Source of the DNA: a candidate division FCPU426 bacterium
Lineage (GTDB): Bacteria; Oederibacteriota; Muellerivitia; Muellerivitales; Muellerivitaceae
DNA length: 64,000 nucleotides
Assembly (NCBI GenBank): GCA_963719085.1
Contig: CAVRAL010000001.1
Span: forward strand, 736,001-800,000
Reading direction: 5' to 3'
Below the pieces are notes generated by a model, which ran no database searches, was not told the origin of the DNA, and saw only the letters and a program-made list of their open reading frames with translations. The position numbers were made by a program, and so were the translations under genes. Shown in pieces: positions 12,966-58,104 of this stretch. The stretch's first letter is position 1, and every line of letters begins with the position of its first letter.

Positions 12966-14432
12966 TTAATTGAGGAAGGTTTTGACCTTCAGTTTTTGGC
13001 GTTGGTCATCCAAAAACGACTTCACCCATTGGTCTTGTTTGGCCGTAATCAATTGTTCTTGGGCTTGGGCCAGGTCCTTTTGCTTTTCCTTGTCCGAAAG
13101 AGGACGATCCTGGGCCTGCGTGATTTGGAAGAAACAATGGTCATCGCCCAAATCCAGTGGGCCCCGCCACTCACCCACATACAAGGCGGCCAAAGTCTGG
13201 CTGACGGCCGTCGAATCTTTGTATCCGGGAATGCCCGCGCCGGCGGTGAACCAGGCGGTGGTCTGGGTTTTCAGCTTTAACTCACCGGCGGCTTTGGCCA
13301 GGGGCTCTTTTTGCTCAAGCTTGATTGCCACTTGTTGGGCCAGGGCTGAAATTTCCTCCTGGGCCTTTTCCGATCGGTATTGGTCCAGCGCCTGGGAACG
13401 GACGCCCTCGAAAGTGCTGGTATAGGATTTTTCGTAATCCTCCAATTGCACGATGTGGTACCCGAATTGGGTTTTGAAGGGTTCGGAAATCTGGCCTTTT
13501 TTCAACTTGTCGAATATTTGATCCTCGAACTCTTTCACCATGGTTCCGCGGGTGGCCCAGCCTAGCTCGCCGCCTTGGGGCGCGGAGCCCGGGTCTTGGG
13601 AATACTTTTTAGCGGCGTCCGCAAAAGTTATTTTCCCCGACGAGATTTTTTCCCTTAAGTCCGAAAGCGTTTTTTGGACAGCCGCTTCCTCTTGCGGCGC
13701 GGCGCCGGCCTTCAAGGTGATCAGAATGTGGCGGGCTTTGGCCCTTTCAGGATGGTCGAATTGGGCTTTGTTGCTTTCGTAGTAGGACTTTAATTCGTCG
13801 ACGCTCGGCGTAATGGTTTTTTCATAGCTTTTCACGTTGAAGGACAGGATATCGGCCTTGAGGCTGCGGTTTAAAAGATCGGCGTAGTGGTCCACTTCCG
13901 CGGGGGAAAAGACAACGGCGTCCGCCAACACGGAGGTGATTTTTTGCGTGAGGAGCTGTTGTCTTTCGGATTGCTCATATATTTCGGGGGTGAGCTGATT
14001 TTTCTGGAGAATATCAAAGTAAATGTTTTTATCGAATTTACCGTTGCTTCCCATGAAATAAGGTTGGCGTTGGATCACGGCCGCGACTTCTTCCGTGGAT
14101 ACCGTAATGCGCAGTTTTTCGGCGGTTTGGTTCAAAATGGAAGTATTGATCAATTGGTCCAGAACTTCCTGGCGTAACTCGGTCATTTCCTCTGGGGAGG
14201 GAGCTTGGCCGGAGCTGCTGTAAAGCCGGTTGACCGCGGAGTCGTAAATCTGGTTGAGCTGATCAAAGGTGATTTTTTCTTTGCCCACCTTGGCCGCCAC
14301 ATTGGGATCGGTTTGATTGAGGCCCTGATATTTGGTTCCCACCGCGATAAAGACGAACCCCACCACAAAAGCGAAAATCAGTATCCAAAGAACGATGTGC
14401 ATGGTTTTCTTGTCGCGCAATGTCCGCATCAT
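12966..14432 (-). CDS. PpiD/SurA-like periplasmic chaperone with parvulin PPIase domain
   Basis: N-terminal TM, SurA_N-like region, ARHILI...FADAAKKYSQDPGSAPQGGELG...FKTQFGYHIV. Confidence 0.9.
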   Translation of the reverse strand: MMRTLRDKKTMHIVLWILIFAFVVGFVFIAVGTKYQGLNQTDPNVAAKVGKEKITFDQLNQIYDSAVNRLYSSSGQAPSPEEMTELRQEVLDQLINTSILNQTAEKLRITVSTEEVAAVIQRQPYFMGSNGKFDKNIYFDILQKNQLTPEIYEQSERQQLLTQKITSVLADAVVFSPAEVDHYADLLNRSLKADILSFNVKSYEKTITPSVDELKSYYESNKAQFDHPERAKARHILITLKAGAAPQEEAAVQKTLSDLREKISSGKITFADAAKKYSQDPGSAPQGGELGWATRGTMVKEFEDQIFDKLKKGQISEPFKTQFGYHIVQLEDYEKSYTSTFEGVRSQALDQYRSEKAQEEISALAQQVAIKLEQKEPLAKAAGELKLKTQTTAWFTAGAGIPGYKDSTAVSQTLAALYVGEWRGPLDLGDDHCFFQITQAQDRPLSDKEKQKDLAQAQEQLITAKQDQWVKSFLDDQRQKLKVKTFLN

Positions 14433-14605: not shown

Positions 14606-14636
14606 TTGACAGTCAAAAGGTTTATCGTGATATAAT
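14606..14636 (+). promoter_or_regulatory. Promoter for the PorV-like/TPR operon
   Basis: TTGACA-19nt-TATAAT with TGn extended -10. Confidence 0.65.
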
Positions 14637-14662: not shown

Positions 14663-16438
14663 ATGATCCAAAACAAAACCTTTCTTTACTCGATCATTTT
14701 CTACTTCCTTGTTCTTTTGATGGGATGGTCCACCTATTCTTTTGCCGGCAGCACCAGCACCTCGGGCGTTCCTTTTTTACAAATACCGGCGGGAGTGCGC
14801 GGCGCGGGCATGGGGCAGGCCTTTTCGGCGATGGCGGATGATCTGGGGGCCGCTTATTGGAACGCGGCGGGGTTCGCCCAAATCACGGATCCTGAAATTT
14901 CCCTCTCGCATATTTCCTATTTTGAAGGCATCGATTACGAATTTATCGGAGCCGCATTGCCCCTGGCTTCCGGCAGCACTTTGGGAATCACCGCGAATCT
15001 GGATTCGGTCGGGGATTTTAATTCGACCGGGAACCCTTCCGCCACGCCGGGAAGCGCTTTGGATTGGGATTTGGGGGTGGAATTAGGGCAAAGTTTTGGC
15101 GAGAATTTTTCCTTGGGGCTGGGGGCCAAGTTTATCAACAGTACCTTGGTTTCTTACAGCGCCACGGGGCAGGCGATTGACGCCGGGCTTCTGGTCTATA
15201 CCTCCCATAAAGAACTGACCCTGGGGCTGTCGGTTCAAAACGTCGGGCAAATATCCGGTTTCAACCAATTCGGCACCCAGGAAAAGCTGCCCACCACTTA
15301 CCGAGCCGGTCTCGCCTATCGATTGAGCCCGGAAGACCCCACCCATCTGGCGTTGGATGTGGACATCGAAAAACCCATTGACGATGATCCCATCTTGCAC
15401 GCCGGCGGGGAAGTGTGGGTCGATTTTCAGGGAATTTCGGTGGCCTTTCGCGGAGGCTACAGCTTCAACCCGTTGAACAGCGATTTAGGGGGGACCACCG
15501 GCGCTTCCGTCGGCGCGGGCGTGAAAGTTTCCCAGTTTGAGTTTGAGTACGCGCTGGTTCCTTTCGGCCTGCTGGGGGACAGCAACGAGTTTTCGATCAC
15601 CTATCGGTTTGAGCCCCCGTCCCAAGAAGCGGCCGCCGCGGCCTCGGCTGAAAAACCGGCGGTTTTGGACATTAAACCCCAGCTGGCGGATTACAAAACC
15701 GGGGCTTTACAGCAGGCGACCTTTGAAATTAAACCGCAGGCCCGGACTGAGATTAAAAACTGGAGCCTCGAAATCAGGGACCCGAGCGGAAATCTGTTGA
15801 GAACTTATTCCGGCAAGGGTGTGCCGCCCAAGCAAATCGCGTGGGACGGTAAAGACGCTTATGGACATGTGGTCCCACAAGGTATTTTCGCCAATTACAA
15901 TTTTAAGACCGAGGACGTTCAGGGCCAGCAATTGGTTTCGAGCAACCCTCTGTTTAAAATCAGCGGAGTGACCGAAGGAACCATCACCCCGGGCGTGATG
16001 ACGCCCCAATTGGCGGCCATGCTGGCGCAGGCCCAACCCGAGCCCATCTATGTCCCCGTGTTGCCGGAGCGAATCGAGCCCATGGGGCCTTCGGGCCAAG
16101 TGAAGATGCCGTCGGTGGGTTTTGCCGAAAACTCCAGCCGCTTGGATCCGGGCTATCTTATCTTTTTGGACCAGGTGGCCCAATATATCCGCAAATACCC
16201 GAACGCCCGGGTGTATATCGAAGGGCACGCCTCGGCCGATGAGCCGGTTCGGGACGCCCTTCAGTTATCCCAAAATCGGGCGGATTCGGTTTTAAGATAC
16301 TTGGTGGAGAAGGGTAAGGTTTCGCCGGGGAATCTTTACGCCCGCGGCCACGGCCGGGCGACGGACTCAACGGAAAGTGATTCGGAAATCGCGCACTTCA
16401 GGACCCGAAGTGTGGATATCATCATATTGACCAAATAA
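14663..16438 (+). CDS. PorV/FadL-like OM beta-barrel + FlgD-like Ig domain + OmpA-like C-terminal domain
   Basis: Signal peptide; PAGVRGAGMGQAFSAMADD...YWNAAG; amphipathic strands; WSLEIRD...AWDGKD; IEGHAS...LSQNRADSV...RSVDI. Confidence 0.8.
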   Translation: MIQNKTFLYSIIFYFLVLLMGWSTYSFAGSTSTSGVPFLQIPAGVRGAGMGQAFSAMADDLGAAYWNAAGFAQITDPEISLSHISYFEGIDYEFIGAALPLASGSTLGITANLDSVGDFNSTGNPSATPGSALDWDLGVELGQSFGENFSLGLGAKFINSTLVSYSATGQAIDAGLLVYTSHKELTLGLSVQNVGQISGFNQFGTQEKLPTTYRAGLAYRLSPEDPTHLALDVDIEKPIDDDPILHAGGEVWVDFQGISVAFRGGYSFNPLNSDLGGTTGASVGAGVKVSQFEFEYALVPFGLLGDSNEFSITYRFEPPSQEAAAAASAEKPAVLDIKPQLADYKTGALQQATFEIKPQARTEIKNWSLEIRDPSGNLLRTYSGKGVPPKQIAWDGKDAYGHVVPQGIFANYNFKTEDVQGQQLVSSNPLFKISGVTEGTITPGVMTPQLAAMLAQAQPEPIYVPVLPERIEPMGPSGQVKMPSVGFAENSSRLDPGYLIFLDQVAQYIRKYPNARVYIEGHASADEPVRDALQLSQNRADSVLRYLVEKGKVSPGNLYARGHGRATDSTESDSEIAHFRTRSVDIIILTK

Positions 16439-16464
16439 ACTGTTCGAAGGCGAGGTGCAGCGTT

Positions 16465-17670
16465 TTGAAACAACTCATTCCCATTTCGTTAGCGGCTTTT
16501 TTGATGGTCGCGGTATTTGGCTGCCAGAGAAACAACCAACTGGAAACAGCGGCGGCCTTGGACAAGGCGGGCCAATATCCGGAGGCCATCAAGCTTTACC
16601 AGGATTACTTGAAACAATATCCAGCTTCGGCCCTGACCGCGCGGGTTTATTACCTCATGGCCAAGGATTACGGATCCGGTTCCGACTATACGAACGCGAT
16701 CCTTTGGTACGATAAAATTATCGCCCAATATCCACAAAGCCCCGAGGGGCTGCTGGCCTTGCTGGATGAGGCCGCCCTGTATAAAGACAAATTGAAAAAC
16801 ACCGCCAAGGCTTACGGGTATTCGGAAAAAGCCGTTGGACAATATTTCGCGAACAGCCAGGTCAAGGATGACATTCAATTTTTAGTGGACGCCCAATATC
16901 AAAGCGCCACGGCGTTTTACGCGAAAAAAGACTTCAAAACCTCGAATCAAGTGGCGTCCTCGATCTTTGCCGCTTATCCGGTTCTTTTCATCAATCCGGA
17001 TTCCCGGGCCAAAGTCGAGGCCCTTATTGACCAAACCCGGCGGGCGCTGGGCATGGCCCAGCTTGATTCCAGCGCGGTTTCCATTCGAAGCGAGGAACCG
17101 TTCAACAAAAGTTTTGAGGCGGATTTTGATTCCAATACTTCCACCGTGGAAGCCAAGGTGCTTTCCCCGCAGGGAGATTGGGTGGTTTCCCGCAAACAAG
17201 TGTCCCATTCTTATTATCTTTATCTGGCGAAAAACGATCCCAAGGCCGGCAAATTACGGTTTAACATTATTCCGCATACCTCCGGCGCCAATTTGCCGAA
17301 TTGGTCCCCGGATGAGGCCAATCTGGTGTATTTGCGCGTGACGGGCGCGGGACGGCGCTTAGACCGGATCGAGTTGAAGACCGACAAGACACAAACCCTC
17401 TTTCATTCGGAGGACGCGACCCTGGGGCTTTATCCGGTTTATCATCCGTCGGGTTCCAAAATCGCTTTTGTTTACGCGGGGAACGTGTGGTTGGTCAACG
17501 CGGACGGCACGGACAAAAGTTTATTGAAAACGAACGAACGGCTTGATTATACTGCGCACCTGACTTGGTCCGGCGACGGCACCATGCTTCGATGCGAACA
17601 AAATGGGAAAAAAGAAAAGACGGTCGACGAAGTGCTCATTTTGGACGCGGTGGGAACCTTCAATCCTTGA
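16465..17670 (+). CDS. Lipoprotein with TPR repeats and TolB-like (PD40) beta-propeller
   Basis: GAGGTG SD with TTG start; lipobox VFGC; TPR EAIKLYQDYLKQYP; PNWSPD, PVYHPSG, WLVNADG, LTWSGDG. Confidence 0.8.
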   Translation: MKQLIPISLAAFLMVAVFGCQRNNQLETAAALDKAGQYPEAIKLYQDYLKQYPASALTARVYYLMAKDYGSGSDYTNAILWYDKIIAQYPQSPEGLLALLDEAALYKDKLKNTAKAYGYSEKAVGQYFANSQVKDDIQFLVDAQYQSATAFYAKKDFKTSNQVASSIFAAYPVLFINPDSRAKVEALIDQTRRALGMAQLDSSAVSIRSEEPFNKSFEADFDSNTSTVEAKVLSPQGDWVVSRKQVSHSYYLYLAKNDPKAGKLRFNIIPHTSGANLPNWSPDEANLVYLRVTGAGRRLDRIELKTDKTQTLFHSEDATLGLYPVYHPSGSKIAFVYAGNVWLVNADGTDKSLLKTNERLDYTAHLTWSGDGTMLRCEQNGKKEKTVDEVLILDAVGTFNP

Positions 17671-17686
17671 AATTCAGGGGAAAATC

Positions 17687-19588
17687 TTGAAAAAATTAAT
17701 TCTTTTTATCGTCCTTTCGGTTTGGGGTTGCGCGGCCTCGCCGGCCGGGGCGCAAGACGCCACCATCGCGACCCTTATGAACGCGGTGAAGGCGAACCCC
17801 AATTCCTATGACGCCGAATTCAATCTGGGCGTCGCCTATTTCAACGCCCAACAATATGACTTGGCAGCCCCGGAATTTAAGCGCGCGCACGATTTGAAGT
17901 CCAGCGATACGACCTCCCAAGAAATGTACGAAAGCAGTTTGGGGATTTCGGCCTATCTCAAGGCGGATTATCCGACGGCGATTTCCCATCTGAAGGCCGT
18001 CTTGAGCGTAAACCCAAAAAATCCCAACGCCAACTTGCTTTTGGGAAACGCTTATATCCAGACCAATGACTATAAGGACGCTGAGGCTTTCCTTTTGGGC
18101 AACATCGCGTCCTCCCCGGATAAACCCCAGGTCCTGAAGGACGCACATGAGGGTTTGGCCAAGATTTATATGGATCAAAAAAATTACAAGGCGGCGGAGG
18201 ATCAGCTTACCGCTTTACTCGAGTTGCTTTCCAAGTCAAAAGAAGCGGACCGTTATTTCGGCGCCGCTCAAAATTTAGGCGTCGCTTACTTCCAGTCGGC
18301 GGAAGGCCAGCCGACCTCCATCCAAGCCGGCGATTACGCCAACGCGGTGAGCGCTTGGCAGAAGGCCCTGCAAATACATTCGGACGCCCAAATCGAGAAA
18401 TTTTTGGGTTTCTCCTATTACAACTTGGGCCAATTCCCTGAGGCCATCAATGATTACGAGCTGTCGTTAAAACAAAATCCCGACGACTCCGAGACCTATT
18501 ACAACTTGGCGGTGGCCTACAACGACAACGGCCTTTACGACGAGGCCGCGGCCAATTTCGCCCAAGCGTTTAAAATTGACCCGAAAGATTCCAACGCCGC
18601 AGTCGGCCAAGCCCAGGCCACCGAGGCGGCGATTAACGCGGATCTTGAGAAGGGAAGCAATTATTCCTTGAACAGCCAATATAGCGACGCCATTCAGGAG
18701 TGGGAGAAGGTCTTGGGTTACCAGCCGGACAATAAACAAGCCCAGGATTTTATCGCCGATGCGAAGTCCAAATTAGCGGTGGATGTGGAGAAGCATTATG
18801 AATTAGGTCAAACCGCTTATCACAACGGGAACAGCGTGGTCGCGTTAACCGAGTGGAACACGGCTTTGAAGATGGATCCCTCCAACGAAAAAGCGCAGGA
18901 GGCGTTGAATAAACTGAAGCTTAAAACCAGCGAGAAAATCAGCTCCCTGCTTTCCGACGGCGACGAGCTTTACGCCGAGAAGGACTACGCGGGCGCCATG
19001 GATAAATACCGGCAGGCGGCCAAAATCAATCCCGGCAGTTCGGCCGTTAAAAAGGCGATGAAAAAACTGAAATCCACCCAAGGAGACGCTTTCAATACTT
19101 ATTACGCGGCGGGAAAGTCGAGCGAGCAAAAAGGCGATTTGAAAAAGGCGCTGCTGGATTACGAGACGGCGTCGGGCATTGATCCTTCCAACGGCGACGT
19201 GAAGGACAGGCTGTTCGGGGTGCGGAAAAACTTGAGCAATAAAATCAGCCAGCTCTTGGACGAGGGATCGGTCTTGATGGACAGCGGTAATAAAGACCAG
19301 GCCAGCCAGAAGTTCCAGCAGGTGTTGACGCTGGACCCGGAAAACGTCCGGGCCAACGACTATATCACCAAGATGACGGGCCAAACCTCCGAGCAAAAGG
19401 CGAATTCGGAGAATGTGAAGACGCTTTATTATGAGGGTGTTAACCTATACCTGGATAATAAGATTCCCGACGCCATCGACAAGTGGAAACAGTGCTTAGT
19501 GCTTGATCCGGGTAATGTGAACGCGCAGCAAAACATTTCCAAGGCGCAGGCGAAATTGGAGTCGATCAAGAAGTTGAGCGGAGCCTAG
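17687..19588 (+). CDS. Exported multi-TPR protein
   Basis: Signal peptide ending AGA-Q; many TPR units (FNLGVAYF, YYNLAVAY, LKMDPSN, LTLDPEN, LVLDPGN). Confidence 0.85.
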   Translation: MKKLILFIVLSVWGCAASPAGAQDATIATLMNAVKANPNSYDAEFNLGVAYFNAQQYDLAAPEFKRAHDLKSSDTTSQEMYESSLGISAYLKADYPTAISHLKAVLSVNPKNPNANLLLGNAYIQTNDYKDAEAFLLGNIASSPDKPQVLKDAHEGLAKIYMDQKNYKAAEDQLTALLELLSKSKEADRYFGAAQNLGVAYFQSAEGQPTSIQAGDYANAVSAWQKALQIHSDAQIEKFLGFSYYNLGQFPEAINDYELSLKQNPDDSETYYNLAVAYNDNGLYDEAAANFAQAFKIDPKDSNAAVGQAQATEAAINADLEKGSNYSLNSQYSDAIQEWEKVLGYQPDNKQAQDFIADAKSKLAVDVEKHYELGQTAYHNGNSVVALTEWNTALKMDPSNEKAQEALNKLKLKTSEKISSLLSDGDELYAEKDYAGAMDKYRQAAKINPGSSAVKKAMKKLKSTQGDAFNTYYAAGKSSEQKGDLKKALLDYETASGIDPSNGDVKDRLFGVRKNLSNKISQLLDEGSVLMDSGNKDQASQKFQQVLTLDPENVRANDYITKMTGQTSEQKANSENVKTLYYEGVNLYLDNKIPDAIDKWKQCLVLDPGNVNAQQNISKAQAKLESIKKLSGA

Positions 19589-19607
19589 TTGGTTTTTTAA
19601 AAAAAGC

Positions 19608-19684
<77 letters not shown>

Positions 19685-19687
19685 TTT

Positions 19688-21295
19688 TTGTTTAAGCGAA
19701 GGTGTGGCCCTACGAATTTTTTCTCCCCCATTTTTTCAGTTTCCCCTCTCAAAAAAAACAGTTCGTTTTTTGTTTTGGTTTTATGGATATTTGTTTTAGG
19801 AAAACCCGCGGGCGCCCAGTCCTTGGCCCCGGCCGAAAGCCAGGACTTCGCCCAATCCGACACCGTTTTCCTTCCCGCCGGCACGGATGATTTGGGGTCG
19901 CTACCTTACCGGATCCAACTGGCGCCCTCACAGGATGGGTTCAACTCCGTGGCGGGGCTCTTGTCCGGGCAAGTGGGATGGGGGAATGATCTGGGCCAGG
20001 GCGCGGCGGGCCTGAGGGCTTTGCCGCCCGGTCTTTTATTTGAGGGGGTGGCTTATCCGCTCGCCAACCGGAATATTCTCAACTGGATGCCGGCTTTGGG
20101 TTCGATGGAACTTTTGAACTTTCCCGCGGAGGCTTGGTGGGGTCCGTCGGCCGCGGCGGGCGCGATCCAGGTTCGGGAACCGGAATTGGGTGATCACCCG
20201 GCCGGACAAATGACCCTTTGGGGCGGGACGGGACCCTTCGGCGATTTTTCGGGAAAATATTCGGATTCAAACTTGGCCGTTTTGGGTGATTACAGGCATG
20301 CGCCCGACAGCGATTTTGTAAATTTGACTCAGCAAACTTTCACCTTACAAGCCAAAGCCCAACTGATCAACGATGATGAATGGGATTTGCATGGCGGTTT
20401 TTTGGGCGCTCAAAATGACACAGGCGATCATTGGTATTCCTGGGTGGGCGATTTGCGGTGGTCGGATCAAAATTTTCAATCCCTCAGGCTGCGTCCTTAT
20501 TTTCAGTCCGCCAAGGCTCAAAATGAGCAGGCCGATGAGGCGGGAAGCCGCCTGGACTATGACGTCAATTTGGCGGGGGCGGTGGAAGGGAATGTGGCCC
20601 TGGGACTTAGCCGTCTTTATTCCAACGGCGGCGGCCCCTGGGGGAATCAAAACCAAGGCTATGTTCAAAACACGGATTTGATTGACGCCTTGGGGGATTT
20701 TACCCTCAACTTGGCTTTTCGGCTGGATTTTTCCAGCGTTCAAAATTCGAATTTCTCCTCTTTGATGGGTGTGCAATACAACCTGGGAATCGTCACTTGG
20801 CTTGGGGATTACGCCGCGGGATTGGATCCTCTGTCCGGGAATTCAGTTCAGCAGGAAGACTTGGGCGCCAAAATCAACCTCGAAACCGAGGACGAACTCG
20901 ATCTTTTATACGTCCATCAATACAACAGCCAGGTTGTTTTAAACGGCGGCACGGTGAAATTCTTGAAGGGTTTTGAGCGCTTGGATGGCCCGGTTTTGGA
21001 AGAGGCGTCTTTGGATCTCGAGGCCCAAGTATTGAGAACTATTTTCGGACAAAATTTGGGGGATGTGAGTTTAGGATTTACCGGCCGCCTGTTTCATTCG
21101 CTCCGGGTGCGGATCAGCGCGAGAGCGACGCAAGACGCGCCCTGGTACGGAACGGCCAGTTTGGCTTATCCCGTGGAACCCCGGCTGGTGTTTTTTGTCA
21201 CCGGTCAAAACTTGGGAAATAATCCGGTTTCTTGGCCCGAATCCGATTTTCAGCCGGGGTTTAACTTGATGGGGGGCATGACTTTGGGATTCTAA
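19688..21295 (+). CDS. Putative outer-membrane beta-barrel, divergent TonB-dependent-receptor-like
   Basis: Signal-peptide-like segment ending AGA-Q; plug-like AWWGPSAAAGAIQV; amphipathic strands; NLGN...PGFNLMGGMTLGF C-terminus; start uncertain. Confidence 0.6.
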   Translation: MFKRRCGPTNFFSPIFSVSPLKKNSSFFVLVLWIFVLGKPAGAQSLAPAESQDFAQSDTVFLPAGTDDLGSLPYRIQLAPSQDGFNSVAGLLSGQVGWGNDLGQGAAGLRALPPGLLFEGVAYPLANRNILNWMPALGSMELLNFPAEAWWGPSAAAGAIQVREPELGDHPAGQMTLWGGTGPFGDFSGKYSDSNLAVLGDYRHAPDSDFVNLTQQTFTLQAKAQLINDDEWDLHGGFLGAQNDTGDHWYSWVGDLRWSDQNFQSLRLRPYFQSAKAQNEQADEAGSRLDYDVNLAGAVEGNVALGLSRLYSNGGGPWGNQNQGYVQNTDLIDALGDFTLNLAFRLDFSSVQNSNFSSLMGVQYNLGIVTWLGDYAAGLDPLSGNSVQQEDLGAKINLETEDELDLLYVHQYNSQVVLNGGTVKFLKGFERLDGPVLEEASLDLEAQVLRTIFGQNLGDVSLGFTGRLFHSLRVRISARATQDAPWYGTASLAYPVEPRLVFFVTGQNLGNNPVSWPESDFQPGFNLMGGMTLGF

Positions 21296-21304
21296 AGGCC
21301 GTCC

Positions 21305-21333
21305 TTGACCCGCCCAAACCCGCGTGTTAGTTT
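21305..21333 (+). promoter_or_regulatory. Putative promoter (possibly leaderless transcript)
   Basis: TTGACC-17nt-TAGTTT with TG extension, 6 nt before ATG 21340. Confidence 0.45.
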
Positions 21334-21339
21334 TTACTT

Positions 21340-22278
21340 ATGAAAAAAAATGTCTCAGCCGCGCTTGTTCTTTTGGTTTTGGCCCTTTTCGGGGCGCGGG
21401 CTGTTTTCGCCCAAGACCCGGGAACCAGCGGAGCGGACATTCTTAAAAGCCCGATCGGCGTTCGGGCCGCGGCCATGGCGGGAACTTACGCCGCATTCGG
21501 GGACGATGTTTATGTGATCGGCTATAACCCGGCGGGTCTGGCCCGGATTTCAAAATATAGTTTGGGACTGGATCACATTGATGGAATCGCGGGGGTTGAA
21601 ACCGAGGCCCTGAGTGTGGCGATTCCGACCCGAAATTACGGTAATTTCGGGGGCCAAATCATCTACCGCCATTTGCCGGTCATTCAAAATACACTGGCCA
21701 CCGACCCGCCCGTTGAATCTTCCGATATCGTTTTGACCGTGGCCGACGCGCAGCAGTTTGGGGGGATCGCGGTGGGCGGGTCTTTGAAAACACTTTTTTC
21801 CAACCTCGGCGGCAAACAAGCTTTGGTGGAGGCGATTGATTTAGGGATAAAGTTCCAGTTGTTGCAGACTGACATGGCTTTTGTCCTCCAAAATATGGGG
21901 GCGGGAGTCCAGTACCAGCCCAATACCTCCGGTGCTTCCGATCCCTTGCCTTTTACCGTTCGTTTCGGATTGGCCCGGCCCTTGATTGTCTCGCCCATTT
22001 CCACCCTGTTGGCCGGCGCCGAGGGGCTTTATGTGAATGATGAGGGGCCCCAGGCGTCCTTTGCTTTGGAATATTGGTATCGCAGCATATTGGCTTTTCG
22101 GGCCGGGTACCGTTTTAGCGATCCCGGAAACTTATCGGGCGGCCTTTCGGCCGGCGCGGGATTTCGCTTTACCATTGGGGATCTGGAGGGGGAGGTAGGC
22201 TACGCTTGGCATCCCGCTTCGGTCGATTCAAATTTCATGGTGAATTCCAATAATTTCGGCTTGCTTTTGTGGTATTAA
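21340..22278 (+). CDS. Stand-alone PorV/PorQ-family (FadL-like) OM beta-barrel
   Basis: Signal peptide VFA-Q; PIGVRAAAMAG...YNPAGL; QNMG; LPFTVRFG; AFRAGY; C-terminal aromatic WY. Confidence 0.8.
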   Translation: MKKNVSAALVLLVLALFGARAVFAQDPGTSGADILKSPIGVRAAAMAGTYAAFGDDVYVIGYNPAGLARISKYSLGLDHIDGIAGVETEALSVAIPTRNYGNFGGQIIYRHLPVIQNTLATDPPVESSDIVLTVADAQQFGGIAVGGSLKTLFSNLGGKQALVEAIDLGIKFQLLQTDMAFVLQNMGAGVQYQPNTSGASDPLPFTVRFGLARPLIVSPISTLLAGAEGLYVNDEGPQASFALEYWYRSILAFRAGYRFSDPGNLSGGLSAGAGFRFTIGDLEGEVGYAWHPASVDSNFMVNSNNFGLLLWY

Positions 22279-30557: not shown

Positions 30558-30758
30558 AGGCGTTTAACATTAAACTATGTGACTTTAGTTGAGAGAGGGT
30601 TTTCAACCAGTTTAATTGGGTAAATGTCGCGAATAAGTGCAAGTTTTTTGTCGTTTTTTGTTTTTTGATTTTGAGGTATCTCAAATGACGGGATTTAAGA
30701 ATAATCGTTAAAATCCTGCAGCTGATGGCCGAGGTTGAAAAAAGGGGATATGGGTCGC

Positions 30759-32183
30759 ATGAGAAAATTCAACAAAAACATAATTCTCTTTTTTTTAAGC
30801 CTGGCTTTTCTTTTGATCATCTCGTTTCCAAGAACGGCTTTCGCTATTTTTGAGCGCGAGGGCAATGTGGGGGTGGGCGCCCGCGCCATGGGCATGGGCG
30901 GGGCGTTCGTGGCCGTGGCGGATGATCCCAGCGCGGCCTATTGGAATCCGGCCGGCTTAACCCAACTACCGGTTCCGACTCTACTCTTCATGTACGGGTC
31001 CCTTTTCAATGACAAGACCCAGAACTTATACACCGCTTTTCAATATCCGCTGCCGAACGATATTCATTTGGCCTTGAGCCTGAATAACTCTTTTTTCTCG
31101 GCGACGGGCGGAGCCCAGCAAGGCCAGTACCAAGGTTCAGTGGCTTTTCCGCTTCAGTTTGTCCCCGAGAAAAGATTATCAGTCGGATTTAATTTTCGGT
31201 ATTTGAACGCCGGCTTGGGGTCGACTTTAGGGAGCGCCCAAGGGGTTGGCGTGGATCTTGGTTTTTTGTACCGGCAAAAGTTAGAAAATCAAATGGAGCT
31301 TAGCGCGGGACTGGTTTTTGACGACATCGCGACCACCGCCCGTTTTGACAGCGGGGTCGAGGAAAACCTGCCGACCATCATTACTCCCGGATTGGCTTTT
31401 CGATTTGATAAGGACACTTTGGTTTCCTTGGATTTGCCTTGGACGGTTTCGGATTACACGGATGGAACCTCGGATCTTGAATTTCGAAGCGGATTGGAAC
31501 ATTGGTTCTTTGACGGCAAGCTCGGGCTTCGGGTGGGCTATTTGAGCCTGCAAACCCTGCCGGGGGAGTTTACGGTGGGCGCCAGCTATCGGAATTATCA
31601 ATGGTTCGTGGATTACGCTTATATCAATCATTCCAACGATCTGGGAAACAGCCATCGAATTGAGGGAGGATGGTATTTCGACACGCAAAGTCCTGATTTC
31701 AAACCCGAAGCCAGGCCCTATGTGATTGAAACCTTTGTCTCGGATCAGAAGATTTATTTTAAGTGGGACGTTCCCCAAGGAAGCCAGGCGGACGGTTACT
31801 ATGTGTATATTAAGACTGACGCCGACAGCGCTTTTCAAAAAGCCAAACAAGAAGCGCTCGACACCAAATACTGCCTCTTGCGGGGCGCCGTGAACGGGAC
31901 CCGGTACCAGATCTACATTGTTTCGATCGTCGATGGAAAAGAAAAACTTTCCAGCAACGTTTTCATCGCCACTCCCAAACCGATGTCGGATGACGCGATG
32001 CATTATTATCAAGTGGGGGTTCAGTATTTTAATCAAAACAACCTGTCCGCCGCTCTTTATGCCGCCCGTAAAGCCGAGGAGTTGGACCCGGATAATTACG
32101 ACATTAAGGATCTTTTGAGAAAATTGGACACGACCCATAGCCAGGGCCTGGTTTCTCAAGACGAGGGAGCGAGTCTCAAATGA
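30759..32183 (+). CDS. PorV/FadL-like OM barrel + fibronectin-III-like domain + TPR
   Basis: Signal peptide AFA-I; GVGARAMGMGGAFVAVADDPSAAYWNPAG; KWD...GYYVY...NGTRYQIYIVSI...ATP; TPR YYQVGVQYF...ELDPDN. Confidence 0.8.
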   Translation: MRKFNKNIILFFLSLAFLLIISFPRTAFAIFEREGNVGVGARAMGMGGAFVAVADDPSAAYWNPAGLTQLPVPTLLFMYGSLFNDKTQNLYTAFQYPLPNDIHLALSLNNSFFSATGGAQQGQYQGSVAFPLQFVPEKRLSVGFNFRYLNAGLGSTLGSAQGVGVDLGFLYRQKLENQMELSAGLVFDDIATTARFDSGVEENLPTIITPGLAFRFDKDTLVSLDLPWTVSDYTDGTSDLEFRSGLEHWFFDGKLGLRVGYLSLQTLPGEFTVGASYRNYQWFVDYAYINHSNDLGNSHRIEGGWYFDTQSPDFKPEARPYVIETFVSDQKIYFKWDVPQGSQADGYYVYIKTDADSAFQKAKQEALDTKYCLLRGAVNGTRYQIYIVSIVDGKEKLSSNVFIATPKPMSDDAMHYYQVGVQYFNQNNLSAALYAARKAEELDPDNYDIKDLLRKLDTTHSQGLVSQDEGASLK

Positions 32184-32827
32184 AAATGAACCGGTTTTGT
32201 TTGATCCTTGTTTTTTCATTTTTCTTTTTCCCCGGGTTTGGGCGCTGTCAAACGCCCGCGTCCGAGCCGACCCCCGGAGCCGTGACAGGGGATTCCCTTT
32301 ATCAGCAGGCCTTGGACACTTATTTGAACGGGGATTATGACCAGGCGATTCTTTTGGCGGCCAAAGCGGTCCAAGCCGATCCTCAAAATCAAAAAGCCCA
32401 AAATCTTTTAACGCTTCTCACCAATGAAAAGAAGGACATCGGTAAATATGAAATTTGGTTGTCCGGCCAAGGCGGCAAGGCGGCGACGCCGATCGATGAC
32501 TCGGCGGGCGTGAACGCGGACGCGGGGATTCAGGACCAAATCCAGAAGGTTCAACAACACTTCAATTATTTTTATACGGCCCAGACCCGTGAAAATGGAC
32601 AGTTTCAGGGACAAATTCAAGCGGTTTCGGAATTGCTTCGGGAAAACTCCAACCACCAGTACGACGAATTGCGGAAATCACAAAACGATTTGATCGGTCA
32701 AGTTCAAGTGATCAGCCAGGGCCATGATCGAAGCTTATGGATCCTTTATTTTTTGTGTTTCATGAGCATGCTGCTGTCCTTCTGTGCGCTTTGGGCTATG
32801 CTCCGAGGCCCCCGGGGCCGTGCCTAA
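32180..32827 (+). CDS. Exported TPR/coiled-coil protein with C-terminal TM helix
   Basis: Hydrophobic N-terminus, TPR LYQQALDTYLNGDYDQAI, Gln-rich helical region, C-terminal hydrophobic segment followed by Arg residues; ATGA overlap with the upstream gene. Confidence 0.65.
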   Translation: MKMNRFCLILVFSFFFFPGFGRCQTPASEPTPGAVTGDSLYQQALDTYLNGDYDQAILLAAKAVQADPQNQKAQNLLTLLTNEKKDIGKYEIWLSGQGGKAATPIDDSAGVNADAGIQDQIQKVQQHFNYFYTAQTRENGQFQGQIQAVSELLRENSNHQYDELRKSQNDLIGQVQVISQGHDRSLWILYFLCFMSMLLSFCALWAMLRGPRGRA

Positions 32828-43529: not shown

Positions 43530-45887
43530 TTGAATTCATCGCTTATACCACGCACGATTACCTTTTTGTTTTTACTGGGATTTATCGTTGAACCTTCTTG
43601 GGCCATCGATCCGCTTCCCGTCCAAGACGCTTATGGAATTGGAATGGGGGGAGCGGACAGCGCCATCGTGGGCGGAACCCACTCGATTGAAGTCAATCCG
43701 GCCGGATTGGCCCAAGCCACGGTTCCCATGGGACAAATCGGGCTGGGGCTTGCTCCTCAAGGAACTTTTGATTTAAACAACGTTGTTCTTTATCCGCTTC
43801 AAGATGGGACGGTTTTCGCGCTCTCCCAATTCACCGGGTTTTACAGCGGTTATTCCAACACGGCCATTGTGGGATCCGTCGGCCTGCCGCTGGACTCGTC
43901 CCGGGATCTGTCTTTGGGATTGAACCTCAAATATCTGCTTCTTTCCAATCCGGCGAATTCGGTGGAAGGCCCTGGCCGCGGATTTGGAATGGATTTAGGT
44001 TTTACCTATAACCTCAGGGATTCCAAGGGAACCTTGGCCTCCTTTGGATTAACGATTAAGGATTTAAGCTCCGAGATTCGCTTTTCAAATACGGGCGAGG
44101 AATCCGTGACCCGCACCTTCTCCCTGGGCGCGGCCTATGACGCGATCCAAGACACGCGGATTGAAATGGACGCTGATTTTGTGGATAAGACTTTGGGGCC
44201 CACTTTGTTGCACGACCAGTTTGATTTGGGCGCGGAGCGGTTTTTTCAAGACCGGAATTTTTCGGCCCGGGTCGGTTATAACGACATGTTTCAAAACGAT
44301 GGGGCCTTCACGCTGGGCGGCGGCTATCATCCCGCCCAACCTTTTGAGATCACTTACGCCTTCGAGGTCTCGACCGATTTCAAGCAAGTTTCCAATTTTT
44401 TAACTTTTGTTTACCGGTTGGATGATTGGAATAAAAACAAGACCGAGCAAACCGATAGCAACGGCGAAATTACGCTGGGGCATTCCACGGAGCCTGAGGA
44501 ACAGGCCGCGCAAGAGCCGTCCGCGTCGATCTCCCATACCGGAAGGCCGGTTTCGGGAGTTCCTTTACGAAAAATGCAGGTTTCGGCGCAGCCTAGTTTG
44601 ATTTCGGAGTCCGGCGCCCAAAAAACAACTCAGATCACCTTCCCGGGTGAAAAGCCGGACGATATCGCGGGCTGGGAAATTTTGATTAAAAACTCGACCG
44701 GAAAAATTTACCGGAAAATCGACGGAACGGGCAAGCCTTTTTCGGCCCTGGCATGGGATGGAACGGATGACTCCGGAAAAACGCTTCCCGAAGGCGTTTA
44801 TCAAATCAATCTTCGAACCTTCAACGCTTCCAATGATTTGCTGTCCGACGATTTCACCGACTTGCAAATTGTTCCGGCCCGGTCGCGTTTTGGAATGACG
44901 GTCAACTCGCCTTATTTGTCCATGGCGAAGACGAACAAGACGCCCGGACTTTTATTCACGCCGGACCCGGGCGGTTCCTATGACGCTCCGACTTGGGAAT
45001 TGAAAGTGGAAAACGCCGTCACCCATGAGGTGGTTTATGAACATAAAGGCAAGGTTCGAATCCCGAAGACCCTCAAATGGAACGGACGGGGATTGAAAGG
45101 GTTGCCGGTCCCCGATGGAACTTATGAGTGCACTTTGAGCGCGGTGGATAAATTAGGGGACCAGTTAAGCACGGAGCCGGTTGAAATTATCGTCCGCAGC
45201 GCGCCGCCGGCGGCCGCTTTAAAAGGAGACGATCATTGGGTTGATTTTTCCAAAACGGAAAAATTGAGCCTTCATTTGAGCGCCGAGGATTCGGCGGGAA
45301 TTCAAAACTGGTCAGTGAAGTTATTGGATGAGGATGACAATGTTTTGAAGACTTTCCTGGGGCAAGACGCCCCGCCGGAAGAGGTGGCTTGGAACGGCAA
45401 ATTGGACTCTGCGGAGACCATTCCGGACGGAAGCTTTGTGCGGGCCGAGTTTTGGGTCCAAGATAAAGCCGGTAACATAACCCAAACCGACGATTTTCCC
45501 ATTCAAGTTTTAGTCAAGGCTCCCGCGGGCCAGGCCAGTCTTTCGCTTAACTTAACGACGGTCTATTTCGCCGATGAAGCGGATACCCTGAGCCCGGAAG
45601 CTAAAAAGGAAATACAACAAGCCGCCATTTCCATTAAACCTTACCTGGATAAAAGTATTTTTGTGATCGAGGGCTACGCGGACTCCGCTGAAAACGATGA
45701 TTTGGTGACGCTTTCGCATGACCGGGCCGACAGTGTCCGGGAGTATTTGATGAAGACCTTCTCGGTTTCGGCGGATAAGGTTTTCGCCTTGGGTTATGCC
45801 GCCCGTGAAACGCTGAAGGACGCGGCTGGGGCCGAGCCCGCCGATAAGCAGCGCCGCGCCACGATTACGCTTTATACCCAGCCTTAG
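43530..45887 (+). CDS. Divergent PorV/FadL-like barrel + three FlgD-like Ig repeats + OmpA-like domain
   Basis: GIGMGGA...NPAGLA; three W-x-L...W[DN]G...P[DE]G repeats; IEGYAD...LSHDRADSV...RRATI. Confidence 0.78.
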   Translation: MNSSLIPRTITFLFLLGFIVEPSWAIDPLPVQDAYGIGMGGADSAIVGGTHSIEVNPAGLAQATVPMGQIGLGLAPQGTFDLNNVVLYPLQDGTVFALSQFTGFYSGYSNTAIVGSVGLPLDSSRDLSLGLNLKYLLLSNPANSVEGPGRGFGMDLGFTYNLRDSKGTLASFGLTIKDLSSEIRFSNTGEESVTRTFSLGAAYDAIQDTRIEMDADFVDKTLGPTLLHDQFDLGAERFFQDRNFSARVGYNDMFQNDGAFTLGGGYHPAQPFEITYAFEVSTDFKQVSNFLTFVYRLDDWNKNKTEQTDSNGEITLGHSTEPEEQAAQEPSASISHTGRPVSGVPLRKMQVSAQPSLISESGAQKTTQITFPGEKPDDIAGWEILIKNSTGKIYRKIDGTGKPFSALAWDGTDDSGKTLPEGVYQINLRTFNASNDLLSDDFTDLQIVPARSRFGMTVNSPYLSMAKTNKTPGLLFTPDPGGSYDAPTWELKVENAVTHEVVYEHKGKVRIPKTLKWNGRGLKGLPVPDGTYECTLSAVDKLGDQLSTEPVEIIVRSAPPAAALKGDDHWVDFSKTEKLSLHLSAEDSAGIQNWSVKLLDEDDNVLKTFLGQDAPPEEVAWNGKLDSAETIPDGSFVRAEFWVQDKAGNITQTDDFPIQVLVKAPAGQASLSLNLTTVYFADEADTLSPEAKKEIQQAAISIKPYLDKSIFVIEGYADSAENDDLVTLSHDRADSVREYLMKTFSVSADKVFALGYAARETLKDAAGAEPADKQRRATITLYTQP

Positions 45888-52971: not shown

Positions 52972-53682
52972 TTGATTCGATTATTCGCCGCTTATCTAAT
53001 GGTGGGGATGAGTTGTCTTGGATGTTCCCGGCATGAGACGGCCGGAATTTCAAGCGATCCCAAACTCGCGCAAGCGCAAAAATCGATAGCGGATGGAAAC
53101 TACGACGCGGCGGTAAGCCAGACAAAAGAAATCGTTTCTCAAGCCCCGGCCTCCACTTTAACGTCGCAAGCGCTTTATTTGGAAGCCTATTCCATGGTTT
53201 ACGGATGGGGCGATTTTCATCAAGCCGCTCGGGCGCTCCGTCAGCTCTTGCAGTCTGATCCGAAGGGTTCGTTGGCCTCGCCGGCCCAAAGACTACTCGC
53301 CGATTGCGACTATTGGCAAGGCAACTATTCCAGGGCGATCCGTGAGTATGGCCCATTGGCGGCCTCGGGGGAAACCGACCCGCGCGAGGACGCCAATTTA
53401 CAGATCGCCAACTGCCTTCTGCTGAAAAACAAGGTCGGGGACGCGATCACCGCTTATCGCGCCATCGTGGACAGGGTCCCCGCCAGTTCAAGCGCGGATA
53501 AGGCTCAAATGATGATCGCGAATATTTACCTGAAGATACAAAACCCAACCCAAGCGAAGACCGAGTTTCAAAAATTATTGTCTTTCACGAAGAACAAAAC
53601 CTTCGAAGAAGACGCCCGAAATTGTGTGCGTCAAATTGACTCGCAGGCGCCTTTTCAAAAATCAAACGGGGACAAGGAATGA
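52972..53682 (+). CDS. TPR lipoprotein
   Basis: Lipobox-like CLGC; several TPR units (ADCDYWQGNYSRAIREY, AQMMIANIY). Confidence 0.75.
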   Translation: MIRLFAAYLMVGMSCLGCSRHETAGISSDPKLAQAQKSIADGNYDAAVSQTKEIVSQAPASTLTSQALYLEAYSMVYGWGDFHQAARALRQLLQSDPKGSLASPAQRLLADCDYWQGNYSRAIREYGPLAASGETDPREDANLQIANCLLLKNKVGDAITAYRAIVDRVPASSSADKAQMMIANIYLKIQNPTQAKTEFQKLLSFTKNKTFEEDARNCVRQIDSQAPFQKSNGDKE

Positions 53683-57105: not shown

Positions 57106-58104
57106 TTATTTCCCGATGGGGGTGGGAAGCGAAACGGCCGCTTGGATCCCGGGAGCCCAAGAAGGCGAAGTGCCTCCGTCGGAAGTCAGCGCCTTGATGT
57201 TGGCGCCGCTTTGATCGGCTATGTCGATGTTTAAGGTATCATCCTCACTGGTGGCAGAACAATAAACTATTTTTTTGTCGTTTTGCGCGAAGTGGGGACA
57301 GAGGCTGTGGGTATTGGTGGTGAAATTGACGGGGTTGGTTCCATCGCTATCCACCGTGTAAATTTGGGTCATATTGGCCCGGTAAAGATTGAAAAGAATT
57401 TTTCGGCCGTCGCTGGAATAGGAGGGGGAGCCTACATTCCAATCGGTGTAGTTGGTCAATTTGGTGACGGACTTATCGGAAATGTTCAACAACCACAAGT
57501 TGTAAACGCTGTCGCTGGCGCTGGAAAGAAAGAGGACATTCTTTCCGTCCGGGGATAGGACGGGACAGATCGCCGAATGGTCGGTGAGCAATGTCTCGGG
57601 ATTGTAGCCGTCGGCGTCCATCATCCAGATGTCTCCCTCAATCGCGTAAACAATTTTTTCCCCATCCGCCGACCAAGAGGGGGAGTCGTTGATCAGTAAA
57701 TTCTCGTCGTTGGTCTTTAATGAGTTAGTTTCGTCGAAGGTCAGTTGTTCCCGGTGATGGGACCCGCCCAGATCGATTTTCCACAATTGATAAATTCCAC
57801 CTTCGGCGTTTGACCAATAGACGGCCGCGTCGCCTTTGGGCGAGCAAGCCGGAAACCATTCGGTGCTGGTTCCACTGGTCAGGGGGGTGATCTCACTCGT
57901 CACGAGATCCATCATGGCCAGATGTCCCCTTTGAACAAAAACAACCAGCCCCGCGGGCGCGGCGGGAAGGGGTGTGGGCGCGGGCGGGGGAGCCACGATT
58001 TCTTTTTTCTTACAAGAAAGAGCGGAAAGGCCGGCGAATGAGGCCAGTGTTAAAAAGGCGGCTAAACATAAAAAATAATGTTTTTTCATTTTAGGTTGGC
58101 TCAT
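57106..58104 (-). CDS. TolB-like (PD40 beta-propeller) lipoprotein
   Basis: LSALSC lipobox-like, Pro-rich linker, repeats SPSWSADG, PVLSPDG, SPSYSSDG, SPSW. Confidence 0.8.
   Translation of the reverse strand: MSQPKMKKHYFLCLAAFLTLASFAGLSALSCKKKEIVAPPPAPTPLPAAPAGLVVFVQRGHLAMMDLVTSEITPLTSGTSTEWFPACSPKGDAAVYWSNAEGGIYQLWKIDLGGSHHREQLTFDETNSLKTNDENLLINDSPSWSADGEKIVYAIEGDIWMMDADGYNPETLLTDHSAICPVLSPDGKNVLFLSSASDSVYNLWLLNISDKSVTKLTNYTDWNVGSPSYSSDGRKILFNLYRANMTQIYTVDSDGTNPVNFTTNTHSLCPHFAQNDKKIVYCSATSEDDTLNIDIADQSGANIKALTSDGGTSPSWAPGIQAAVSLPTPIGK

Follow-up and report, generated by a model that had tools for sequence, protein, structure and literature searches.

We analyzed a 64,000-nt stretch of DNA (hereafter, the window; positions 736,001 to 800,000 of contig CAVRAL010000001.1) from the genome of an uncultured bacterium of the candidate division FCPU426. 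The genome is 3.04 Mb and 99% complete. The window is a housekeeping stretch: plsX-fabHDG-fabF, rnc and maf come before the locus that concerns us, and rplU, obg and proBA come after it. The locus has five protein-coding genes, which we call g1 to g5. They lie on the plus strand behind a divergent gene for a PpiD-like protein, in the order g1, g2, g3, tRNA-Gly(CCC), g4, g5, with intergenic gaps of 13-68 nt. (ORF, open reading frame; TPR, tetratricopeptide repeat; AF2, AlphaFold2.)

12966..14432, minus strand: PpiD/SurA-like periplasmic chaperone, the divergent neighbor of g1 (SurA_N_3, 131 bits; Rotamase, 98 bits; hydrophobic N-terminal membrane anchor)
14606..14636, plus strand: promoter-like site, read from the sequence (TTGACA at 14606-14611, TATAAT at 14631-14636, TGn before the second hexamer)
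14663..16438, plus strand: g1, with a signal peptide, a hatch motif, a 14-strand PorV/FadL-family barrel, an immunoglobulin (Ig)-like domain, a linker and an OmpA domain (family models, AF2 model, fold matches)
16465..17670, plus strand: g2, an outer-membrane lipoprotein with a CpoB/YbgF-like TPR region (residues 26-132) and a TolB-like beta-propeller (about 242-374) (lipobox, weak family matches)
17687..19588, plus strand: g3, an exported soluble TPR protein of about 633 aa (TPR matches; the ORF opens at 17603 and the likely start is a TTG at 17687)
19608..19682, plus strand: tRNA-Gly(CCC) (Rfam)
19751..21295, plus strand: g4, a compact barrel with the fold of TonB-dependent transporters, a plug and 22 strands, ending in ..GGMTLGF (AF2 model; the ORF is 19655-21295 and the start codon is uncertain)
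21340..22278, plus strand: g5, a stand-alone PorV/PorQ-family barrel of 312 aa (PorV_fam, 108.4 bits; UPF0164, 26.4 bits)

As explained below, g1-g2-g3 is probably a wall anchor, either for a motor-less, type IX-like export pore or for the outer membrane as such. An earlier note on this DNA had described g1 as a PorV/FadL-like barrel fused to Ig and OmpA domains, g2 as a TPR-propeller lipoprotein, g3 as an exported TPR protein of about 630 aa, g4 as a TonB-receptor-like barrel, g5 as a stand-alone PorV-like barrel, and the divergent neighbor as a PpiD/SurA-like chaperone. All of these, and the tRNA-Gly, are where it had placed them, and family models and structure predictions bear out each description. 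Its two additional paralogues in the window and the N-terminal motif that they share with g1 and g5 are also real. The near-consensus promoter that it had seen upstream of g1 holds up in part. Both hexamers are perfect, but the spacer is 19 nt; a consensus promoter scan, which considered spacers of 16-18 nt only, lists no site at 14606-14636 because this spacer is longer than 18 nt. Rfam found no RNA leaders or riboswitches in the window, and three tRNAs were its sole matches.

We then examined g1, which encodes 591 amino acids. It matches the NCBIfam model PorV_fam (NF033709) with 148.7 bits (cut-off 90; residues 33-316) and Pfam's OmpA (PF00691) with 63 bits (cut-off 27.2; residues 487-578). 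Pfam's FlgD_ig, at 26.5 bits, is just below its cut-off of 27. In the AF2 model (mean confidence, or pLDDT, 70.9), residues 78-315 form 14 strands and residues 335-429 a sandwich of seven, after which a disordered linker leads to an OmpA fold (479-589); the hatch region is modeled with low confidence. The domains correspond to these stretches of the gene:

14747..15610, plus strand: g1 barrel domain with the hatch motif W-N-x-A-G, residues ~29-316 (PorV_fam, 148.7 bits; 14 strands in the model)
15665..15949, plus strand: g1 Ig-like (FlgD_ig-type) beta-sandwich, predicted to be periplasmic, residues 335-429 (seven strands in the model)
16097..16429, plus strand: g1 OmpA_C-type domain, predicted to bind peptidoglycan, residues 479-589 (Pfam OmpA; matches to Pal, OmpA and OprF)

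The solved structures most similar to the g1 model are PorV (8gl6_F, E = 1.7e-11, and 6h3i_F), followed by FadL (2.3e-8) and TodX. Similarly, in a profile search of the PDB with g1, PorV (6h3i_F, E = 3.6e-12) is the sole barrel among the 60 best rows, and Pfam's Toluene_X does not match g1. By both measures, the barrel of g1 is closer to PorV than to FadL. The OmpA domain resembles the C-terminal domains of OprF, Pal and OmpA, both by fold and by sequence. Membership in the PorV/PorQ-family barrel fold rests on the model of g1, which is the one family member that was modeled.

PorV of Flavobacterium johnsoniae (6H3I, 8GL6) is thus the best match of g1 by both sequence and fold, and it has a similar hatch (WNPA at the aligned position). 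But g1 is far below the cut-offs of the equivalog models for PorV (NF033710, 60 bits versus 250), PorQ (NF033711, 106.2 versus 220) and PorV2 (NF052325, 60.8 versus 325). The barrels at the locus are also much more compact (about 290 aa), and g1, unlike PorV, extends into Ig and OmpA domains that are predicted to be periplasmic. The PorP/SprF family (PF11751) matches neither g1 nor g5 at E = 0.01 or better. In the alignment of the g1 family, W66, N67, A69 and G70 of the hatch are invariant, and the hatch proline is absent from the g1 subfamily.

The second protein, g2 (401 aa), has a lipobox (..AVFGC) that is kept in 12 of 12 close orthologues and in 5 of 6 distant ones. The tol_pal_ybgF and propeller_TolB models each match all 18 g2-family members, with scores that stay far under the cut-offs. 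Elsewhere in the genome, the top matches to the propeller of g2 are also encoded in the window: a YbgF/BamD-like TPR protein of 236 aa (52972-53682) and two adjoining TolB-like propeller proteins of 336 and 440 aa (57106-59423, minus strand). The third protein, g3, matches 22 TPR families and consists entirely of TPRs behind a signal peptide, if translated from the TTG at 17687. Its orthologues have signals of the signal peptidase I type, with no conserved cysteine or lipobox. We also tried to predict a complex of g1 (residues 29-591) with g2 (residues 20-401). The score was 0.00, which is no answer and weighs neither for nor against binding.

The three genes g1-g2-g3 form a conserved core unit, which we call the trio. 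The relatives of g1 (about 68 at the cluster level, with 45-86% identity) are all from uncultured bacteria, and the mean column identity of the family is 62% (24 sequences). We counted gene order in the 15 closest genome loci (L030-L044) of 75 related loci. The g1-g2 pair is kept in all 15, and g3 is next in all 12 that reach that far. The flanks are less constant: tRNA-Gly follows g3 in 8 of 9 loci, g4 is next in 7 of 9, g5-rplU-obg is kept in 6, and the PpiD-like gene is upstream of g1 in 9 of 15. More broadly, the g1 profile has matches in 99 of 99 genomes of the phylum, and in many families these cover the barrel part alone. There are also barrel-plus-Ig relatives in Eisenbacteria, Krumholzibacteriia and Latescibacterota; among 61 such loci (L044-L104), only L044 has matches to g2 and g3.

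Does the organism have a type IX secretion system (T9SS)? The earlier note had placed the locus outside the classical T9SS context, but the genome encodes a SprA/Sov translocon, whose ORF of 1948 aa is on contig C1 but not in the window (TIGR04189, 231.8 bits; cut-off 200). It also encodes type A C-terminal domain (CTD) tails, with 18 matches to TIGR04183, of which 14 are over the cut-off. The genome-wide search for SprA, PorKLMN and CTD cargo that the note had suggested thus succeeded for SprA and for cargo and not for the ring and motor: GldK, GldL, GldM and GldN (TIGR03525, TIGR03513, TIGR03517 and TIGR03523) have no match in this 99%-complete genome, although the models for GldL, GldM and GldN lacked a matching control genome, so diverged forms are possible. 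For the PorU sortase, all 13 matches are at model positions 961 and above (the tail), none of them over cut-off, so no PorU body was found. Of 99 genomes from across the phylum, 92 have a SprA-like ORF of about 2000 aa; among the 60 genomes of high quality, 58 do.

Five PorV-family genes of this genome start at most 4 nt from the stop codon of a CTD cargo gene. (These pairs are outside the window, at L110:4673-8430, L114:5469-11380, L111:2394-5671, L112:7922-10854 and L115:2733-5407.) A similar arrangement is known from type B CTD cargo, with its cognate pairs of the SprB/SprF type. The paired cargo genes encode, among others, an S8 protease and proteins with glycosidase-like regions. In a sixth pair (L108:7079-11664), a protein with a PorZ-like tail precedes a fusion of a PorV-family barrel and OmpA. 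In contrast to the five paralogues, neither g1 nor g5 has a CTD gene directly before it, so there is no supporting sign of a cargo-carrying role for either. We also noticed a second SprA-like ORF, of half the size (1103 aa; L106:4282-9744, contig C5), which weakly matches one segment of SprA. It adjoins genes for an NHL-repeat protein and a weakly matching PorV-family barrel.

In five other families of the phylum, the trio is close to SprA. We looked at the surroundings of SprA in 24 genomes from other families (7 and then 17). In 13 of them, from five families (f15, f18, f21, f22 and f23), the trio is upstream of SprA and shares its strand, at a distance of no more than 9 kb. The order of the block is g1-like, g2-like, g3-like, a LacI regulator, an O-antigen ligase, a heptosyltransferase of glycosyltransferase family 9 (GT9), an ORF of about 220 aa, and SprA; the O-antigen ligase is unmatched in one of the 13 (G087). 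The best matches of the distant trio genes in our genome are g1, g2 and g3. Two more genomes are consistent with this block but are interrupted by contig ends, and G097 retains g2 only. In the other eight (f2, f3, f4, f5, f8, f9, f10 and f13), nothing of the trio was found near SprA; one of these regions is just 5.4 kb.

In those of the first seven loci that reach past SprA, a protein rich in Fn3 domains often follows, and it is homologous to the ORF downstream of SprA in our genome. Here, the Fn3-rich protein directly follows SprA (L105:2019-6518); these proteins are 818-1499 aa, and the forms in distant families are diverged (L120:17379-19835 and L122:16343-19468). The stretch with LacI, the O-antigen ligase (Wzy_C), GT9 and the ORF of about 220 aa is at L119:6755-11262, with counterparts in L120-L131 and L134. 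A link of these four genes to lipopolysaccharide would be of interest since Bacteroidota attach type A cargo to lipopolysaccharide. The ORF of about 220 aa has no homologue in our genome.

The domains of the trio recall a known part of the T9SS. According to a published study, PorE is a lipoprotein with TPRs, a beta-propeller, a CRD sandwich and an OmpA_C domain, and it binds PorP, a 14-strand barrel of the FadL family, and bridges it to peptidoglycan (PMC9143113). The same study reports six porP-like genes in F. johnsoniae that adjoin porE-like genes (PMC9143113). PorP-PorE of Porphyromonas gingivalis and the SprF/PorE-like pairs of F. johnsoniae share several features with our locus: a 14-strand FadL-family barrel, a sandwich plus OmpA_C as the tie to peptidoglycan, a lipid anchor with TPRs and a beta-propeller encoded next door, and a genome with SprA and CTD cargo. 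One difference is in how these parts are divided between the two chains. Here, the sandwich and OmpA domains are fused to the barrel, and the TPRs and the propeller are on a separate lipoprotein.

Given that the domain types of g1 and g2 match, that the genome has SprA and CTD cargo, and that the trio is beside SprA in five families, the interpretation we favor is that the trio is a PorP-PorE-like peptidoglycan anchor and scaffold of a reduced, motor-less SprA-type apparatus, with a shifted gene boundary. We hold this tentatively, at a little less than even confidence. Its grounds are domain logic and synteny; homology to specific families is not among them. In this arrangement, the g1 barrel would sit in the outer membrane, and its C-terminus would reach into the periplasm, where the Ig-like domain would act as a spacer and the OmpA-type domain would grip peptidoglycan. 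g2 would be held on the inner face of the outer membrane by its lipid, with its TPRs and propeller as docking surfaces, and g3 would be a long soluble TPR scaffold. The barrel would have taken over the C-terminal half of PorE (beta-sandwich and OmpA_C), and the N-terminal half of PorE (lipid anchor, TPRs and propeller) would have become a protein of its own. We infer the binding to peptidoglycan and the contacts among g1, g2 and g3, as well as any contact with SprA.

Several observations weigh against a PorP-PorE-like anchor. First, no sequence similarity specific to PorE or PorP was found here. The PorE model (NF052230) gives g1 21.4 bits, against a cut-off of 600, and matches its OmpA part alone; it touches just 1 of 18 g2 relatives (E = 8.6e-4). 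The sandwich of g1 is of the FlgD_ig type, and that of PorE is a CRD. Nor did we find fused relatives of g2 that would resemble PorE: none of 88 longer matches carries OmpA, and they are generic TPR or PD40 proteins. Second, no ring of PorK and PorN was found for the trio to anchor. Compared to PorP-PorE, this genome also lacks a detectable PorL/PorM motor and type B CTD partner, and it has an extra TPR protein (g3, about 630 aa).

Third, the association with SprA has limits. Four other genes stand between the trio and SprA, and the shared order may have been inherited among related genomes and need not reflect function. In our genome and its family, the trio is 195 kb from SprA, beside the PpiD-like gene and housekeeping genes. 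In a quick tree of the barrels, which asked whether the OmpA-fused ones have a single origin, the g1 clade of our family (f1) and the clade of distant g1-like barrels each have support of 100, but they are not joined, and the deep nodes are unresolved. Fourth, SprA is present in genomes of f4 and f5, yet only 0 of 5 and 2 of 6 of these genomes, respectively, have OmpA domains, so SprA does not require an anchor with an OmpA domain. (Genomes of the phylum differ greatly in how many OmpA domains they have: none in f4, 3-8 in f1, and 12-21 in f8 and f9.)

The window has two other members of the barrel family:

30735..32183, plus strand: PorV-family barrel with a C-terminal TPR tail (TPR at residues 424-454; PorV_fam, 94 bits)
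43530..45887, plus strand: diverged PorV-family barrel with FlgD_ig, Ig-like repeats and OmpA (PorV_fam, 63.5 bits, below cut-off; FlgD_ig, 56.2; OmpA, 47.9)

The cut-off of NF033709 is passed by g1, g5 and the 30735 paralogue. The PorP/SprF family (PF11751) scores 16.7 bits on the 43530 paralogue, versus a cut-off of 22.3. After the 30735 paralogue comes a 215-aa protein with a TPR and a C-terminal hydrophobic segment (both genes together, 30735-32827). Across the genome, there are 22 PorV_fam matches at about 20 loci, and none of the paralogues that we examined reaches the equivalog cut-offs for PorV, PorQ or PorV2. What these barrels share near the N-terminus is the hatch motif typical of the FadL/PorV family, which a regular expression finds in 17 of 20 paralogues. 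In FadL, the corresponding NPA motif has been described as essential for gating (PMC8407342).

Four of the PorV-family barrels (705, 548, 323 and 335 aa) lie inside flagellar clusters on contig C1 (L113:3218-6971 and L109:5335-7326), between an flhB-like gene and flgF/flgG/flgA, and after flgE. g5 pairs with one of these four in the quick tree (support 98). Further PorV-family paralogues are near lptF/lptD-like genes. The expanded PorV-like family with periplasmic TPR or propeller partners that the earlier note had proposed is therefore apparent, with about 20 loci and conserved synteny. Nothing that the note had named as refuting its reading was observed: the g1 barrel is nearer to PorV than to FadL, gene order is kept among relatives, and SprA and CTD cargo are both present. 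Its idea of a separate variant secretion or display system fares less well: the locus is more suggestive of an accessory to a reduced type IX-like system, or of a general tether to the wall.

Such a general tether is the strongest alternative to a PorP-PorE-like anchor, and we consider it possible but rather unlikely. g1 would be the equivalent of OmpA or Pal and would keep the outer membrane on the wall, with a PorV-family barrel where others use an 8-strand barrel or a lipid; g2 would sit on its OmpA domain, as a protein similar to TolB and CpoB; and there would be no special tie to secretion. The domain types of Tol-Pal (the propeller of TolB, the OmpA domain of Pal and the TPRs of CpoB/YbgF) are indeed side by side here, which points to a linkage between the outer membrane and peptidoglycan, and all 18 g2 relatives touch the models for such domains. 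Genome-wide, Pfam's OmpA has exactly four matches, which are in g1, in the 43530 paralogue, in another barrel fusion at C4:42078, and in MotB. So three of the four are on PorV-family barrels, and there is no stand-alone Pal or OmpA. The company of the locus (fab genes, rnc, maf, rplU, obg and a PpiD-like chaperone), the strong conservation of g1, and the loss of the proline of the NPA hatch in the g1 subfamily also fit a general tether. But the Tol-Pal equivalogs score far under their cut-offs at the locus (YbgF, 45.9 bits versus 90.1; TolB, 26.7 versus 343; Pal, 28.8 versus 125). Unlike in Tol-Pal, OmpA is on an integral barrel instead of a lipid anchor, the TPRs and the propeller are on one chain, and tolQRA does not adjoin (the neighbors are PpiD-like, maf and rnc). 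Furthermore, small OmpA ORFs of about the size of Pal (some 200 aa) do occur in other genomes of this family, so having OmpA only in fused form is peculiar to this genome. And a general tether leaves the position of the trio upstream of SprA in five families unexplained.

A bolder version of the link to SprA is that the trio holds SprA and couples it to one of five TonB/ExbB-type proton-driven systems, which would replace the PorKLMN ring and motor. We think this improbable. (The genome has 5 TonB_C and 6 ExbB/MotA loci.) If it were true, a type IX translocon could be powered or gated by a Tol/Ton-like module.

Another alternative, which seems quite improbable to us, is that the locus is for nutrient uptake, with g1 and g5 as FadL-type channels for hydrophobic compounds, g4 as a TonB-dependent importer, and the TPR and propeller proteins passing substrates on. 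The ORF of g4 (19655-21295) overlaps the tRNA-Gly, and its first start codon falls within the tRNA, so the true start of g4 must be later. From 19736 to the hydrophobic core of the signal peptide there is no ATG or GTG and a single TTG, at 19775. Neither Pfam nor NCBIfam has a family that matches g4, and none of 31 members of the g4 family matches Pfam's families for TonB-dependent transporters (TBDT, Plug and TonB_dep_Rec). The ESM Atlas gave a lead to the Plug family, which we used as a lead only and checked by folding. The AF2 model is confident (pLDDT 86.9; predicted TM-score, or pTM, 0.85) and has a plug and a 22-strand barrel, and Foldseek matches it to BtuB (E = 2.5e-15, TM-score 0.74 when normalized by the query), Cir and FpvA. 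Unlike typical TonB-dependent transporters, the mature protein has only about 480 residues, with minimal loops. Near its N-terminus there is a conserved hydrophobic segment (..LLPG..) that may be a Ton box, although it does not clearly match one. The g4 family is small (47 representatives among 1.84 billion proteins) and is confined to one order, with g4 in 26 of 30 genomes of f1, in the one genome of f2, and in 0 of 68 genomes from the other 21 families.

As for g5, it is over the cut-offs of PorV_fam (90) and UPF0164 (21.4), and PorV (6h3i_F) is its only barrel match in the profile search of the PDB. It is below the equivalog cut-offs of 250, 220 and 325 for PorV, PorQ and PorV2 (27, 67.9 and 20.4 bits). 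UPF0164 includes the FadL-like proteins of Treponema pallidum (such as TP0856 and TP0858), which, like the barrels here, have NPA or NAA variants of the hatch (PMC8407342). Some treponemal proteins also have C-terminal, TPR-like periplasmic tails, as does the 30735 paralogue; they are read as nutrient importers, and none is described with an OmpA domain (PMC8407342).

Uptake thus has in its favor barrels with the FadL fold and the hatch motif, the fold of g4 together with the TonB and ExbB loci, and the treponemal precedent for TPR-like tails. But PorV ranks above FadL for g1 by sequence and by fold, Toluene_X does not match it, and the g1 subfamily has lost the proline of the NPA motif that is described as essential for FadL gating (PMC8407342). 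To our knowledge, no known FadL transporter carries a wall-binding domain. And outside one order, g4 and g5 are missing from the trio. In the reading that we favor, g4 and g5 are an add-on of one order, probably an uptake pair that is outside the core.

We find it very doubtful that the PorV-like barrels form a system of their own for secretion or surface display, apart from type IX secretion. The roughly 20 PorV-family loci, their TPR and propeller partners, and the failure to find GldK/L/M/N or the body of PorU would suit such a system. But the genome has SprA and CTD cargo, SprA is the only pore with a link to the locus, and g1 and g5, unlike five other paralogues, have no cargo gene as a partner.

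Least of all do we expect an accessory of the barrel assembly machinery (BAM), in which g1 would be a BamG-like FadL-family barrel aided by the PpiD/SurA-like chaperone: g1 is divergently paired with the PpiD-like gene in 9 of 15 loci, and BamG of Bacteroidota is an essential FadL-family subunit of BAM, with counterparts conserved in six of seven further FCB phyla (PMC12611786), but only the 30735 paralogue touches the BamG model (E = 0.0035), and BamG as described has no OmpA domain. As to whether any protein of this genome is BamG itself, NF053685 (cut-off 250 bits) has no match in it, and Bacteroides thetaiotaomicron, the control, is over the cut-off.

A literature search, which did not cover supplements, found no published description of the trio or of a fusion between a PorV-family barrel and OmpA. 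An anchor based on a PorV-family barrel, whether of the PorP/PorE-like or of the OmpA/Pal-like kind, would be a variation on known anchors. The FadL/PorV barrel appears to be a general chassis in this organism, as it is found with wall anchors, with TPR tails, paired with cargo genes, and in flagellar clusters. According to a 2024 paper, T9SS genes do not occur outside the FCB phyla (PMC11285876). Yet a SprA-like pore is present in 92 of the 99 genomes of this phylum that we examined, and PorV-like barrels are in every one. If the trio is a general tether, then it would be a third way, besides OmpA and Pal/Lpp, to tie the outer membrane to the wall. The trio, found beside SprA in five families and following the domain plan of PorP-PorE, provides concrete candidates for accessory parts of such reduced systems, in which SprA-type pores would work without the PorKLMN motor and ring.

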